From assembly GCF_003334765.1 (NCBI RefSeq), contig NZ_QOWT01000002.1: a stretch of DNA of 64,000 bases, one strand, 5' to 3'. This document shows, piece after piece, positions 11,134 to 29,093 of the stretch. Below the pieces are notes generated by a model. It had not been told where the DNA came from, searched no databases, and saw only the letters and a program-made list of their open reading frames with translations. The first letter of the stretch is position 1. Each line of letters begins with the position of its first letter. This DNA is from Escherichia coli. GTDB lineage: Bacteria; Pseudomonadota; Gammaproteobacteria; Enterobacterales; Enterobacteriaceae. The position numbers and the translations under genes are program-made.

Positions 11134-12504
11134 TTACTCGTTCAGCAACGTCAGCAGAGTTCGCGTTCGCGCTTCCATTAGCGGCACATCACCGCGCGAT
11201 TCCACATTCAACCGCACCACCGGTTCGGTGTTGGAGGAACGCAGGTTAAAGCGCCAGTCGGCAAAGGTCATGCTGATGCCATCGGTGCGATCCACCGCCA
11301 GCGCCTCACGGCTAAAATGCTGTTCCACGCGGTTAATCGCCTCAACGGGTTGCGCCAGTTTGCTGTTGATCTCACCGCTTGCCGGAAACGCCGCCATCCG
11401 GTCGCGTACCAGTTCGCCCAGCGTTTTTCCTTTCAGGCATACCAGTTCGGCGACCAGCAGCCACGGGATCATGCCGCTGTCGCAGTAAGCGAAATCACGG
11501 AAGTAATGGTGGGCGCTCATTTCGCCACCGTAGATGGCGTCTTCCTTGCGCATACGTTCTTTAATAAAGGCGTGTCCGGTTTTCGACATCACCGGAGTGC
11601 CGCCTGCGGCAGTCACCACATCAACGGTGTTCCAGGAGAGACGTGGATCGTGGATGATCTTCGCGCCGGGATTTTTTTCGAGGAATGCTTCTGCCAGCAG
11701 GCCGACAATGTAGTAGCCCTCAATAAACTGCCCTTTTTCGTCAAACAGGAAACAGCGGTCAAAATCGCCATCAAAAGCAATGCCCATATCCGCGCCGTGT
11801 TTGATGACCGCATTGCGGGTGTCGTCGCGGCATTCCGGCAGCAGCGGGTTAGGAATACCGTTGGGGAAATTGCCGTCCGGCGTGTTATGCACTTTGATTA
11901 ACTCCACCGGTGCGCCGAGGGCTTTAAAGCGGGCTTCGATGGCGTCAACTACCGGACCCGCCGCGCCGTTCCCGGAGTTGATCACAAGTTTCAGCGGAGT
12001 AAGGTTTTTGACGTTGATATAACCGAACAGGTGATCAACGTAAGCGTCACGCAGATTGATTTGCTGATAGCGACCGCGTTTGGTTTCATCGACAGGAGGG
12101 AAGTCATTGGCTTCTGCCAGACGCTGGACATCGCGCAGTCCGGTATCACCGCTGATCGGGCGAGCCCCTTCGCGCACCAGTTTCATGCCGTTGTAATCCA
12201 TCGGATTATGGCTGGCAGTAACTTCGATGCCGCCATCCACGCCGAGATGGAACGTGGCGAAATAGATCTCTTCAGTGCCGGACGTGCCAATATCCAGCAC
12301 ATCGACGCCCGCATCCTGTAAACCTTTTGCCAGCGCCAGTTTTAAGGTTTCGCTGGTGAGGCGGACATCACCGCCTAAAACAATGGTTTTCGGTTTAAGA
12401 AATTCGCCATAGGCGCGACCAATACGCCAGGCAATATCTTCATTCAGTTCTTCGCCTAATTTCCCGCGAATATCATAGGCTTTAAAGCAGGTTAATTTTT
12501 TCAT
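11134..12504 (-). CDS. cpsG: phosphomannomutase CpsG (ManB)
   Basis: ORF 11134..12552; start trimmed to ATG at 12504 ([14 protein letters not shown]) preceded by AAGGG; phosphohexomutase active-site region TASHNP present. Confidence 0.92.
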
Positions 12505-12605
12505 GTCGTTACCCTTTTTCAGGCAATAGTTGGCCCTGACCGAAGCGGCCAATTTTGTTTTTGTCGTTATTTACCAGAGAATTAATCCGGTTGATTATTC
12601 AACTA

Positions 12606-14044: not shown

Positions 14045-15268
14045 TTATCCCCGAATATCATGTATAAATTGACGTAACACGTTCTCTTTATCGAGCGTGC
14101 GTTCAGCATATTCACGTGCCACCGTGTTGTGTTTGGGCAGCAGGAGCGCCTGACGGATCCCCGCCACCAGCGCCTCGACCGATTCTGGTTCTACGCAAAC
14201 CGCAATTCCTGAGAAGGTTTCGCAAAGCTGCCCCAGTTCTGTGTGGGCTTCTGCGGTAATCACCGCGTTACCGCCTACCGCCAGAATATTGGTCAGTTTC
14301 GACGGCAATACGGCATCTGCCGCACCGCGTTTTTGCACCACCAGATGGCAATCGCCCATCTTCAGCAGTGCGGGTAAAGCGTCATACGATTGCAGCGGGA
14401 AAAATTGCATATTGCGCAGTCCGCGCTGCTGCGCCATTTTTTCCAGCCGCGCTTTGCCGCCGCCCTGCCCGACAATGGCAAAAATCAGCGGTTCATCGCG
14501 CAGGCGATCGGCAGCTTCAATAACGTTTTCCAGCCCCTGCTTTTCACCAATATTGCCGGAGTAAAGAATGATTTTTTTGTTATCCGGCAGGCCAAGTTGG
14601 TTACGAAGTGCAGCAACATCGGCGTCTGCGACATGCTGAAAACGGGCGATTTCCGACCAGTTGGGGAAGAAAATGACGTTTTCCGCCGCCACGCCTTTTT
14701 CAACGGCTTTATTCATCATCGAACGCGAAATCGTGGAGACGTTATCGACGTTATGCAGTCCGCTACGTTCGAAGGCTGTCGCCAGCTGTGCCACTTTGCC
14801 GCCTTTACCTTTTCCGGCAAGGCCCAGCCCCAGCATGGCATCTACTTCGTAATCCTGAATATGCAGCACGGTACGCGCACCAGAGAGTTTCGCCAGCAGG
14901 CGCATTCCCGGCGTGCAAAACAGCGTTGGTACTACGCCGATAATGCGATCCGGCTTCCAGCGACGTTGAGCCATCAGGGGAAAAAAACTGCTGGCGGCAA
15001 AGCTGCCGAGATGTAACAGGCGTTTCAGGGTGCTCGGCTGTTTTGGCACATACAGCGGGCAGCGCCACACCGTGGCGGCCCCCTCTTCTCGTTTGTACCG
15101 CCAGGCGGAATAGTTCTCGCCCACCTGCCACTGCGGGTAGTACGGCGGTGCGGTAATGACCCGCACCTCATGACCTTGTGCTGCCAGCCATTCCACCATC
15201 TCGCCGGTGTATTTGCCGATGCCGGTTAACTCCGGCGAGTAGTTAATGCCGTAGACCAGTATTTTCAT
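14045..15268 (-). CDS. wcaI: colanic acid glycosyltransferase WcaI
   Basis: 407-aa ORF; synteny. Confidence 0.9.
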
Positions 15269-25711: not shown

Positions 25712-26851
25712 TTACCAGTTATGAATGTCGCTGGCTGTATCCGTCATGTAACGGACACCGCTAATAGTTGGCAGCAACTGATTGATCAGACGGTTCCAGC
25801 GGGAAACCGGGGCGGTGGTGACATACACCACGTCATAAGGTTGCAGGCGGAATTCTGTCGCCATCACCAGCGACGTCGCATCGGACATATCCAGCTGGTA
25901 GATATTGGCAATCTTGCCGTTACGCCCGCCCTCGCCTTTCAGCGGACGAATGACAAAGATGCCGCTGGCGTTGGAGGTGGTCATGTCGATACCTTCGGCA
26001 TTGCCCAGGGCTTCAGTCAGGGTCATGCCGCTAAAGTCCATTTTCAGGGTGCTCTGTTTCTTCACTTCACCCATCACAAACACTTTCAGATCATCATTAC
26101 GCGGCACGTAGAGAATATCGCCGGGGTAAAGCAGTCGGTTCTGATTGAGGTCGCCGTTTTGCATCAGCGCCTGCAAAGAAATGCGTTCTTCACGACCATT
26201 GTGTGTTAGCACCACGTTGCGCCAGTCAGCGGTGTCGGTCAGGCCACCTGCGGCGTTGATGGCGTCGAGAATGGTCAGTGGTACGTTGGTGATCGCCTGT
26301 TGACCGGATTTATTCACCTGACCTGAGATATAGGCCTTTTGCGAGCGGAAGGCGGCGATATTAACATCCACCTGCGGGTCAGCGATGTACGTCGCTAAGC
26401 GCCCGGTAATATCACTGCGGATTTCAGCGAGCGTTTTCCCGACTACGTGGACCTTGCCGATATACGGGTAAAACATAGTGCCGTCAGGCTGTACCCAGTT
26501 GCCGGTGTCGCTGGAGCTGCGGTACTGACCGGCTGGCGTGGTGAGTTCCGGGTGATCCCAGACGGTGACATTCAGAACGTCGCCCGGCCCGACGCGATAC
26601 TGGTAATTCGCGATCTCACTTTCCAGCGTCATATTGGGGCGCGCTACATTCGGGCGTGGGCGTAATTGGTCAATCAGGCGCGGGGTCAGCGGATAAACAT
26701 TCACCATTTTGTCGAGATCGAAATCAGCGTCCTGCTGTTTGATGACGTCTTTGCCCATCGTCGACATATTGCTGCCCGGAAGTACTGTGCAACCGCTTAT
26801 CAAGGTTACTGACACCAATAATGGCATCAATTTCATTTTGGATTTCATCAT
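25712..26851 (-). CDS. wza: outer membrane polysaccharide export lipoprotein Wza
   Basis: 379-aa ORF; signal peptide with lipobox LISGC; first gene of cps operon. Confidence 0.93.
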
Positions 26852-27029
26852 TGTTTATTTATCACTTTGGCAGAGTAATTATCCTGTGCACTATTAATAG
26901 CAATGTCGCCATGCACATTTACCTTGCAGTTAATTGAATACAAATTTAACTGGCATCAGTCCTAAAAAAATTGATTTCATCCGCAGGCTATTGACAGAAT
27001 AATTCAGACTGGTCTTTCAGGCATCCAGA

Positions 27030-27041
27030 CACGCTACCGCC
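27030..27041 (-). promoter_or_regulatory. ops element (GGCGGTAGCGTG) in the cps/wza leader (JUMPstart)
   Basis: Plus strand CACGCTACCGCC; same 12-mer and similar flank (ACACGCTACCGCCCCTGGCTTTTT) as the copy at 1670..1681; about 180 nt upstream of the wza start codon. Confidence 0.75.
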
Positions 27042-27509
27042 CCTGGCTTTTTAGCTACCAATACACTGATTTAGCTTAATTTTTCAAACCCTCTCTGCAT
27101 ACAATCGTTGATGAGAAAGGGTTATTGCGGAAATTAACTTCCGAATATAAGGTGACATTATGGTAATTGAATATTGGCTCTCCAATAATGCAGGAGGAAG
27201 TGTTACAGCTAACGGAATAGCAGGCAAGGTAACAATTCGGCAATTGGCTATTTTTAAGAATTATATTAAGTGTCATTCAATATGGTTTTTAGGAGTTTCT
27301 TTAGGTTGACAATATTTAATATTGCGTCTCCACATGCGATATTTCTTAAATAATGTTTTATTATTACCACTTTTAATTCAGGGATAATGTGAGGTTATTA
27401 CCCTCAAATAATATGAGATAAATAGTGCTGCAACATTGCATTTTTGCCCCGATTTATCCATGATCGAATTGTGACATTTGTCATACAACGAATAGGTTTT
27501 GTACTTACT

Positions 27510-29093
27510 ATGGAATGGATTGCCGATCCGTCTATCTGGGCCGGGTTAATCACGCTGATTGTGATCGAACTGGTCCTCGGCATTGATAACCTGGTCTTTA
27601 TTGCCATCCTCGCCGAAAAACTACCGCCGAAGCAGCGCGACCGCGCACGGGTTACCGGGCTGCTGCTGGCGATGTTAATGCGCCTGTTACTGCTGGCGTC
27701 AATCTCCTGGCTGGTCACCCTGACTCAACCGCTGTTCAGCTTCCGCTCGTTTACCTTTAGCGCCCGCGACTTAATCATGCTGTTTGGTGGTTTCTTCCTG
27801 TTGTTCAAAGCCACGATGGAGCTGAACGAACGGCTGGAAGGGAAAGACAGCAATAATCCCACACAACGCAAAGGTGCGAAGTTCTGGGGCGTGGTGACGC
27901 AAATTGTGGTACTGGACGCCATTTTCTCACTCGACTCAGTGATTACCGCCGTCGGGATGGTCGACCATTTACTGGTCATGATGGCCGCCGTGGTTATCGC
28001 TATCAGCCTGATGTTGATGGCCAGCAAGCCGTTAACGCAATTTGTTAACAGTCACCCGACGATCGTTATTCTCTGCTTAAGCTTCCTGTTGATGATTGGC
28101 TTTAGCCTGGTGGCAGAAGGTTTCGGCTTCGTCATTCCGAAAGGCTACCTGTACGCTGCCATTGGTTTCTCGGTGATGATCGAGGCGCTCAATCAGTTGG
28201 CTATCTTTAACCGGCGACGTTTTCTTTCCGCTAACCAGACGCTGCGCCAGCGGACTACCGAAGCGGTAATGCGCCTGCTTAGCGGGCAAAAAGAAGATGC
28301 GGAACTGGACGCCGAAACCGCGTCCATGCTGGTGGATCATGGTAACCAGCAGATCTTTAATCCGCAGGAACGGCGGATGATTGAGCGGGTACTTAATCTT
28401 AACCAGCGTACCGTCAGCAGCATTATGACGTCGCGCCACGATATTGAGCATATCGATCTCAACGCGCCGGAAGACGAGATCCGCCAGTTACTGGAGCGAA
28501 ATCAGCATACGCGGCTGGTGGTTACCGACGGTGATGATGCAGAAGATTTGCTCGGTGTTGTTCACGTTATCGACCTGCTACAACAGTCACTGCGCGGCGA
28601 ACCGCTCAACCTGCGGGTGTTGATTCGCCAGCCGCTGGTGTTCCCGGAAACCTTGCCGTTGTTACCTGCCCTGGAGCAGTTCCGTAATGCCCGCACGCAC
28701 TTTGCTTTTGTGGTGGATGAGTTTGGCTCGGTGGAAGGGATTGTGACATTAAGTGACGTCACTGAAACCATTGCCGGTAACTTACCGAACGAAGTGGAAG
28801 AGATCGACGCCCGCCATGATATTCAGAAGAATGCGGACGGTTCCTGGACGGCGAATGGTCATATGCCGCTGGAAGATCTGGTGCAATATGTGCCGCTGCC
28901 GCTGGATGAAAAACGTGAATATCACACCATTGCCGGGCTGTTGATGGAGTATTTGCAACGTATTCCAAAACCTGGCGAAGAAGTTCAGGTGGGGGATTAT
29001 TTGCTTAAAACGTTGCAGGTGGAAAGCCATCGCGTGCAGAAGGTGCAGATTATTCCACTGCGTAAGGATGGCGAGATGGAGTACGAGGTGTGA
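27510..29093 (+). CDS. yegH: TerC-family membrane protein with CBS pair and CorC/HlyC C-terminal domain, YegH
   Basis: ORF 27444..29093; start trimmed to ATG at 27510 ([16 protein letters not shown]). Domain order judged from sequence character and family knowledge. Confidence 0.88.

Follow-up and report, generated by a model that had tools for sequence, protein, structure and literature searches.

Control elements upstream of the colanic-acid operon of Escherichia coli: JUMPstart/ops, a predicted core promoter and candidate RcsAB-type boxes

Transcription of the colanic-acid (cps) genes is reported to use "a JUMPStart-RfaH antitermination mechanism", activated by RcsA and RcsB (PMC9976346), and in its passage on cps control that paper cites Stout 1996, Hobbs and Reeves 1994, and Wehland and Bernhard 2000. 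The DNA upstream of wza raises the question of which of these control elements it carries, how they are arranged, and whether it holds any further ones. We addressed this question by computational analysis of the window, a 64,000-nt stretch of E. coli contig NZ_QOWT01000002.1, in which the minus strand is the sense strand of both wza and the O-antigen genes, that is, the non-template strand. Conservation was analysed in a sample of 80 wza loci from different Enterobacteriaceae species.

The wza–yegH region and its gene setting

The region under study lies between two divergent genes:

25712–26851, minus strand: wza, first gene of the colanic-acid (cps/wca) operon (ORF list, and RefSeq annotation of a 100%-identical region)
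27510–29093, plus strand: yegH (TerC family), divergent from wza and bounding the intergenic region

The wza ORF encodes 379 aa from an ATG at 26851 on the minus strand. It is followed by wzb, wzc and the wca genes, then by galF and the start of the O-antigen cluster, whose first genes encode GalE and a family 4 glycosyltransferase. The intergenic region between wza and yegH measures 658 bp (26852–27509) and, as the original prediction had noted, is AT-rich, with a GC content of 35% against 51% for the whole window. The wza control region is core E. coli DNA. A 761-nt query over this region was 100% identical to E. coli O145 RM9872 and was covered to at least 80% in 4819 of 5426 complete E. 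coli genomes, the identity being at least 95% in nearly all of the matching complete genomes (n=4839). Collinearity with RM9872 at high identity extends over only about 12–28 kb of the window; the O-antigen end represents a different serogroup from RM9872 and matches other strains. The same divergent arrangement of wza and yegH, with a JUMPstart in the untranslated leader, characterizes the orthologous cps (wza) promoter of E. coli K-12, and no material difference from the K-12 cps region was found, as far as that region is represented in the papers that cite its description (Stout 1996 and Hobbs and Reeves 1994, cited in PMC9976346 and PMC8117528).

A "hypothetical protein" annotated by PGAP at 27160–27309 on the plus strand, overlying the wza promoter, was rejected as a gene; it lacks conservation, is truncated even in another E. 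coli, and is probably spurious.

Duplicated JUMPstart and ops elements

The following elements were identified in the leaders of the two polysaccharide operons:

27030–27041, minus strand: ops 12-mer GGCGGTAGCGTG of the cps leader, RfaH recruitment site, identical to the wza ops of strain CFT073
27030–27068, minus strand: 39-nt JUMPstart of the cps leader, full-length match to Rfam RF01707 (57.3 bits)
1670–1708, minus strand: JUMPstart of the O-antigen leader, with its ops at 1670–1681, full-length match to Rfam RF01707 (52.5 bits)

The 12-mer GGCGGTAGCGTG occurs exactly twice in the 64 kb, at 27030–27041 and 1670–1681, with no other match at one mismatch or fewer, and on the sense strand it satisfies the ops consensus GGCGGTAGnnTG at both loci. 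In the cps leader, its first nucleotide lies 190 nt before the wza ATG (27041 − 26851 = 190) and its last 178 nt before, in agreement with the distance of about 180 nt originally predicted; at the O-antigen locus, 49 nt separate the start of ops from the ATG of the first O-antigen gene (1632). Both copies sit at the 3′ end of a 39-nt JUMPstart, a membership observed directly in Rfam searches (E-values of 1.6e-10 for cps and 3.8e-9 for the O-antigen copy; gathering score, 35). The recurrence of the 12-mer with a similar flank, which had been noticed from the sequence, was thereby borne out over the full element: the two JUMPstarts are identical at 32 of 39 positions, and ops is free of mismatches, all seven of which lie in the upstream 27 nt. 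Among the 80 Enterobacteriaceae loci, nearly all carry ops about 190 nt before wza, and in alignment the O-antigen JUMPstart is kept in five divergent O-antigen leaders, including those of K-12 rfb and O145.

The duplication is real and far beyond chance, since both 12-mers lie within JUMPstarts that score above the threshold. The view that the repeated 12-mer is a coincidence, or a recombination scar without a regulatory role, might draw on the shorter 8-mer GGCGGTAG, which is found nine times in the window, mostly within genes, compared with 1.4 times in shuffled sequences. This excess was rejected as a signal: 2.5% of the 8-mers in the window are as frequent or more so, which is ordinary coding-sequence k-mer bias, and seven of the nine copies lack the 12-mer and JUMPstart context. 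The full 12-mer with its 39-nt JUMPstart (E ~1e-9 to 1e-10) is confined to the two leader copies, and both of these are conserved across species and O-antigen types, so that the reading as chance or scar is effectively refuted.

JUMPstart is classed in Rfam as a cis-regulatory RNA with a 5-bp stem. Both copies fit this stem (hairpin UGGUA...GCCA upstream of ops), and among the cps, O-antigen and K-12 rfb copies the pair 8–25 takes the forms U-G, U-A and C-G, which would suit an element that acts mainly as structured RNA and not via DNA ops. We regard this as improbable. The hairpin half is far less conserved than ops between the two copies, as the location of all seven mismatches shows. Recruitment of RfaH by exposed non-template DNA is established, as was reportedly found by Artsimovitch and Landick in 2002. 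In addition, in CFT073 the RfaH ChIP signal is linked to the non-template-strand ops 12-mer (PMC9765446).

For RfaH occupancy at these ops sites, we rely on the catalogue of CFT073 ops sites by Hustmyer et al. 2022 (PMC9765446, text and Dataset S2), which at one point also cites Navasa et al. 2014 for colanic acid in K92. In CFT073, GGCGGTAGCGTG is located at −190 from wza, in the untranslated region. The wza gene is silenced by H-NS in the wild type, H-NS covering its promoter, and in an hns stpA double mutant an RfaH ChIP signal appears at the wza ops, with sigma-70 peaks upstream (PMC9765446). The O-antigen (wzx) unit of that strain carries the same 12-mer 67 nt after the transcription-unit start and is bound by RfaH in the wild type, while intragenic ops-like sites show no RfaH binding (PMC9765446). 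The geometry differs in one respect: the CFT073 O-antigen ops lies 71 nt before the first gene, compared with 49 nt here, the strain and the O-antigen type being different. Since the cps locus analysed here has the same 12-mer at the same −190 position as the RfaH-bound ops of CFT073, the RfaH dependence of this locus is already published, for other strains. The original proposal that both operons depend on RfaH is thus supported by the canonical JUMPstart/ops elements and by ChIP data from other strains, namely those of CFT073 at identical 12-mers. Taken together, JUMPstart/ops at both operons, RfaH binding at the wza ops and Rcs activation of wza are already known.

Predicted promoters, the wza leader and translation start

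Promoter and leader elements were placed as follows:

27222–27227, minus strand: predicted −35 element, TTGCCT, within the invariant CTTGCCTG (conservation and alignment)
27199–27207, minus strand: predicted extended −10 element, TGT AACACT (family consensus TGc AACAAT), a conserved block at a fixed 17-nt spacer
26852–27029, minus strand: post-ops part of the 5′ leader, conserved in sequence across genera (conservation profile and alignment)
1757–1785, minus strand: predicted O-antigen promoter (TTGTAT, 17 nt, GACAAT), in invariant blocks (alignments)

Downstream of the RcsAB-like site named in the original prediction (box I, described below), the alignment shows the invariant CTTGCCTG and then the conserved TTAGCTG(T/C)AACA(C/A)T. 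The modal spacing between the −35 and −10 elements is 17 nt, whereas the distance from −10 to ops varies among species, from 142 to 180 nt. Fixed spacing from box to −35 and −10, together with a variable distance from −10 to ops, is the pattern expected of a promoter followed by a leader. The predicted wza start is at about 27192, from which JUMPstart would span approximately +125 to +163 and ops approximately +152 to +163. This core promoter scores 7 of 12 here and 8 of 12 as the family consensus, compared with a scanner threshold of 9, and the scanner flags only an E. coli-specific site at 27184–27157, also upstream of ops. No mapped wza start was found in the literature searched, which reached the primary K-12 mapping (Stout 1996) through citing papers.

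A wza start upstream of ops, at about 27192, implies a leader of about 341 nt and not of 590. The upstream or leader region of about 590 bp in the original prediction therefore agrees neither with the measured intergenic distance of 658 bp nor with the predicted transcribed leader. The figure lumps the transcribed leader with the promoter/operator region and the divergent yegH upstream region.

If the main cps transcript started downstream of ops, ops would be untranscribed and RfaH irrelevant to colanic acid. The approximately 180 nt that separate ops from the wza ATG show striking conservation across genera, unlike the 120 nt preceding JUMPstart, and this part of the leader could in principle hide a promoter. 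Such a start is nevertheless very improbable, given that the scanner detected no promoter-like site between ops and wza, that the predicted core promoter, conserved and at a fixed distance from the Rcs boxes, is located upstream of ops, and that the RfaH ChIP signal at the CFT073 wza ops requires transcription through ops. The position of ops upstream of wza is certain, and the promoter upstream of ops is predicted from its conserved core, with which the sigma-70 ChIP in CFT073 agrees. The start downstream of ops that the original prediction had named as evidence against itself was not found, the conserved core promoter lying upstream. No intrinsic terminator was detected by the scanner in 26700–27600.

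The conserved post-ops leader was also analysed for RNA structure and coding capacity. A structured cis-regulatory RNA was rejected for this leader: it yielded no consensus fold, RNAalifold giving just a 4-bp stem that spans ops, and two hand-picked hairpins were without covariation support and no better than shuffles, 115 of 500 of which reach their covariation score. A 16-codon ORF, MKSIFLGLMPVKFVFN (26930–26980), was rejected as a leader peptide; its frame is interrupted or shifted in Citrobacter and Salmonella, and the conservation of its DNA extends to third-codon positions.

The wza gene is essentially without a Shine-Dalgarno sequence, its anti-Shine-Dalgarno duplex of −1.6 kcal/mol being the weakest in the operon; the value for the first O-antigen gene is −12.3 kcal/mol. 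RfaH helps to recruit ribosomes to genes that lack a Shine-Dalgarno sequence. The weak wza Shine-Dalgarno is in keeping with RfaH-aided ribosome recruitment, a fit and not a proof.

For the O-antigen operon, the conserved promoter elements suggest a start near 1750, and this position agrees with the 67-nt spacing between transcription-unit start and ops in CFT073.

RcsAB-type boxes and a model of wza activation

Upstream of the predicted wza promoter, three RcsAB-type boxes and one further conserved block were located:

27255–27268, minus strand: box I, TAATATAATTCTTA in the sense orientation (TAAGAATTATATTA on the plus strand), the site of the original prediction; centre about −69.5 from the predicted start
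27290–27303, minus strand: box II, TAAAGAAACTCCTA, the RcsAB box published for E. coli wza (PMC4381331 Table S1); centre about −104.5
27305–27311, minus strand: TGTCAAC, invariant (family consensus TGTCAAt), abutting box II (conservation profile and alignment)
27335–27348, minus strand: box III, TAAGAAATATCGCA, conserved, a predicted box; centre about −149.5

The identity of box II is taken from the literature, in which the E. coli wza box is given as TAAAGAAACTCCTA (Table S1 of PMC4381331; Wehland and Bernhard 2000); this exact 14-mer is present here at 27290–27303 on the minus strand. The literature compilation in PMC4381331 gives only this middle box for wza. Because the published box is at 27290–27303, the site at 27255–27268 is not the known operator, although the original description of it as RcsAB-like stands in other respects: box I matches the consensus at 10 of 14 positions, has the top matrix score and is conserved. 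It lies 35 nt closer to the promoter than the published box. We conclude that it is an additional conserved RcsAB-type box and a candidate binding site.

Compared with the RcsAB consensus TaAGaatatTCctA quoted in PMC4325325, TAAGAATTATATTA matches at 10 of 14 positions on either strand and at five of the six positions in capitals. Within a single AT-rich sequence, such matches are not significant: three sites matched TaAGaatatTCctA with four mismatches or fewer, compared with 1.4 +/- 1.3 in shuffles (P ~0.2), and the box matrix score gave P ~0.1, so that any significance comes only from conservation across species. A weight matrix was built from 13 published RcsAB sites, wza being left out, and used to scan 127,974 window positions. 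Box I ranked first in the sense orientation (14.3 bits) and third in the plus-strand orientation (13.8 bits), and box III and box II ranked 6 and 12, respectively, the latter with 10.9 bits.

In the alignment of 77 upstream regions, box I is among the most conserved blocks, with the family consensus TAATATTAATCTTAAAA (sense), and it is near-invariant across about 74 Enterobacteriaceae species; its modal gap to the −35 element is 27 nt (43 of 71 species). The modal spacing from box II to box I is 34–35 nt across species, and the right half of box II, TCCTA, is near-invariant. Box III has the family consensus TAGGAAATATCGCA, and its form in Atlantibacter, TGAGGATATTCCTA, is close to the RcsAB consensus. 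We then scanned the species individually (n=74), counting matches of at least 7 bits, a cut-off reached by 0.58% of positions as background. Relative to the −35 element, a match was detected at −41/−40 (box I) in 64 of 74 species, at −74 to −76 (box II, sense-only) in 47 of 74 and at −119 to −122 (box III) in 44 of 74; the species are homologous and not independent trials, so these counts indicate constraint at matrix-positive positions and not RcsAB binding.

The orientation and position of box I were also considered. In an RcsAB box, the right half belongs to RcsB and is usually turned towards the promoter, and RcsB heteromer sites at other promoters are centred 65–68 bases upstream of the start (PMC3950696). 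On the comparative data, we prefer the wza-sense reading of box I, in which orientation an RcsB-type half, TCTTA, would face the promoter, and its centre at about −69.5 from the predicted start fits the geometry of RcsB heteromers. Boxes I and II have a TCYTAAAA ending in common and lie in the same orientation. The RcsB homodimer pattern TN(G/A)GAN4TC(T/C)NA had no match anywhere in the window. A full-text literature search for the box sequences on either strand returned nothing relevant, and RcsA or RcsB binding data for box I were not found in the literature searched.

An alternative is that RcsAB acts through box II alone, with boxes I and III conserved on other grounds, for instance as an A/T-rich UP-like element, as a tract that bends DNA, as a nucleation site for H-NS or as an operator for some other regulator. 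Box II is the sole wza box in the literature compilation, boxes I and III are AT-rich, a matrix match in DNA of 35% GC is only marginally unusual, the left half of box I (TAATAT) has no match to the RcsA half, and neither box I nor box III fits the homodimer pattern. We consider this reading possible but rather doubtful, in view of the finding that a matrix derived from RcsAB sites unrelated to these singles out precisely the three conserved blocks, with box I as the best site in 64 kb. The ending and orientation common to boxes I and II, the near-perfect RcsAB consensus at the position of box III in some genera, and the agreement of the box I centre with the positions of RcsB heteromer activation likewise argue against it.

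A more novel reading is one of three functional boxes, held tentatively and with a little less than even confidence. Colanic-acid activation in Enterobacteriaceae may proceed via three RcsAB-type boxes in the same orientation at about −70, −105 and −150 (spacings of about 35 and 45 bp), of which the proximal box would be a true RcsAB or RcsB site in contact with RNA polymerase and the distal boxes would form a cooperative complex that displaces H-NS. This conserved three-box Rcs architecture may be the only new part of the locus. A weaker extension of the proposal is an Rcs link to the O-antigen operon. An RcsAB-like core, GAATGTTCCTG, is conserved at 1850–1863, about 105 bp upstream of the predicted O-antigen promoter, and the interval from galF to JUMPstart contains only a weak RcsAB-like site (8.7 bits).

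Known systems offer two comparisons. The rcsA promoter of E. coli uses two RcsAB boxes (PMC11879457) and resembles wza in having several such boxes upstream of an AT-rich, H-NS-silenced promoter; the rcsA boxes precede the start by about 170 bp, while the three predicted at wza lie at the distances given above, one of them tested experimentally. In Klebsiella and in E. coli group 1 capsules (PMC3438125, PMC6128206), JUMPstart/ops is located just downstream of galF and precedes a long polysaccharide operon that receives input from both RfaH and Rcs. In Klebsiella, the promoter that holds the RcsAB box lies upstream of galF, and the post-galF operon in the present window is the O-antigen cluster.

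The sequences and positions reported here, and the cross-species conservation of the boxes, core promoter and spacings, are direct observations; the dependence of wza on Rcs is drawn from published work. On this basis, the region is with high probability the orthologous E. coli cps (wza) control region, working as described for K-12 and CFT073. The intergenic DNA, of 35% GC and silenced by H-NS, would hold a weak sigma-70 promoter, TTGCCT-17-TGT-AACACT, for which we infer a start near 27192. This promoter would require phosphorylated RcsB and RcsA bound upstream, with box II as the published operator. Boxes I and III would be further RcsAB-type sites in the same orientation, with an RcsB-type half (TCYTA or TCGCA) on the promoter side, and probably add cooperative binding or help to displace H-NS. 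RNA polymerase would then transcribe the leader of about 341 nt, and at about +152 to +163 the non-template strand would expose ops, which would pause the enzyme and recruit RfaH. RfaH would replace NusG and suppress Rho- and H-NS-dependent termination across the operon of approximately 25 kb, and probably also helps ribosome loading onto wza, a gene without a Shine-Dalgarno sequence. The O-antigen cluster downstream of galF would operate in the same mode from its own promoter and the second JUMPstart/ops.

The discovery value of these results is small, as they concern established biology whose elements had been correctly recognized, and the published RcsAB box, the predicted promoter and ops are now placed precisely in this sequence. 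Should boxes I and III prove to bind RcsAB, they would sharpen the picture of the activation of a capsule promoter silenced by H-NS and would offer useful targets for the engineering of colanic-acid production.

The wza leader and ribosome-binding sites

We analysed the leader of the colanic-acid (cps) operon between the ops element and the wza ATG (26852-27029, minus strand), which is conserved at the nucleotide level across genera. The conserved blocks within this leader are ATTATTCTGTCAATAG, TTTTTAGGACTGATGCCAGTTA, TTAACTGC and GCACAGGATAATTACTCTGCCAAAGTGATAAATAA. Cross-genus comparison gave support for no RNA fold and detected no conserved ORF in it. For wza (26827-26851 region, minus strand), no Shine-Dalgarno sequence could be recognized, and its anti-SD duplex of -1.6 kcal/mol was the weakest of the cps genes, compared with -12.3 kcal/mol for the first O-antigen gene, which carries AAGGAGG.

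Elements around the cps promoter

The following were noted in or near the cps promoter:

27305-27311, minus strand: heptamer TGTCAA(C/T), unvarying, directly upstream of box II (the published wza RcsAB box, 27290-27303)
26990-26996, minus strand: recurrence of the heptamer as TGTCAAT, inside the conserved wza leader
27160-27309, plus strand: 49-aa 'hypothetical protein' of the RefSeq annotation

The heptamer may be a site for some factor, or a coincidence. The annotated ORF lies antisense to the cps promoter and overlaps both box II and box I (the RcsAB-like sequence at 27255-27268). It is probably a spurious call rather than a real gene, because another E. coli has only a shortened version of the ORF and other genera lack it.

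Intragenic 8-mer copies, other Rfam matches and mosaicism of the window

The 8-mer GGCGGTAG has seven more copies in the window, all within genes:

14275-14282, minus strand: sense strand of wcaI, in the cps operon
27621, 38428, 45818, 46328, 51628 and 59369: other intragenic 8-mer matches

None of these seven intragenic copies was accompanied by the 12-mer or JUMPstart, and the count of the 8-mer in the window was inside normal k-mer variation. Other Rfam matches were three tandem SIB antitoxin RNAs, i.e. ibs/sib type I toxin-antitoxin repeats (42075-42880, plus strand), the CyaR sRNA (56240-56325, plus strand) and, between cpsB and cpsG within the colanic-acid operon, a motif of the 'algC RNA' type (12509-12558, minus strand).

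Compared with the O145 strain RM9872, the window is a mosaic (1-12000 and 28000-64000), although the two are identical at the wza upstream region. Their coordinates move out of register past approximately 28-32 kb, indicating indels. At the O-antigen end, BE2-5, XH990, JE86-ST05 and others were 100% identical to the window, and an O127:H6 strain showed 99.4% identity in the leader.

Predicted promoter and RcsAB-like site ahead of the O-antigen cluster

1754-1793, minus strand: putative O-antigen promoter blocks, GATTTTCCTTGT and GT(T/A)AGACAATT
1850-1863, minus strand: candidate RcsAB-like site TAAGAATGTTCCTG, by consensus match

The blocks at 1754-1793 are constant across O-antigen types. They have the appearance of a promoter for the O-antigen genes (TTGTAT / 17 nt / GACAAT) and are similar to the cps core (CCTTG...TTAG...ACAAT). 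The start predicted near 1750 is consistent with the spacing from transcription-unit start to ops in CFT073.

Downstream of the RcsAB-like site, the predicted O-antigen start follows after approximately 105 nt and the O-antigen JUMPstart after approximately 140 nt. With two mismatches, it is the closest match to the RcsAB consensus in the window; its score was just 8.7 bits (rank 30 in the whole window) with a weight matrix from 13 published RcsAB sites, wza left out. Its core GAATGTTCCTG did not vary across four divergent galF-to-O-antigen leaders; the K-12 rfb version is GAATCTTCCTG, and the core is degenerate in O145. This sequence may represent an Rcs site ahead of the O-antigen genes, or simply part of the promoter region.
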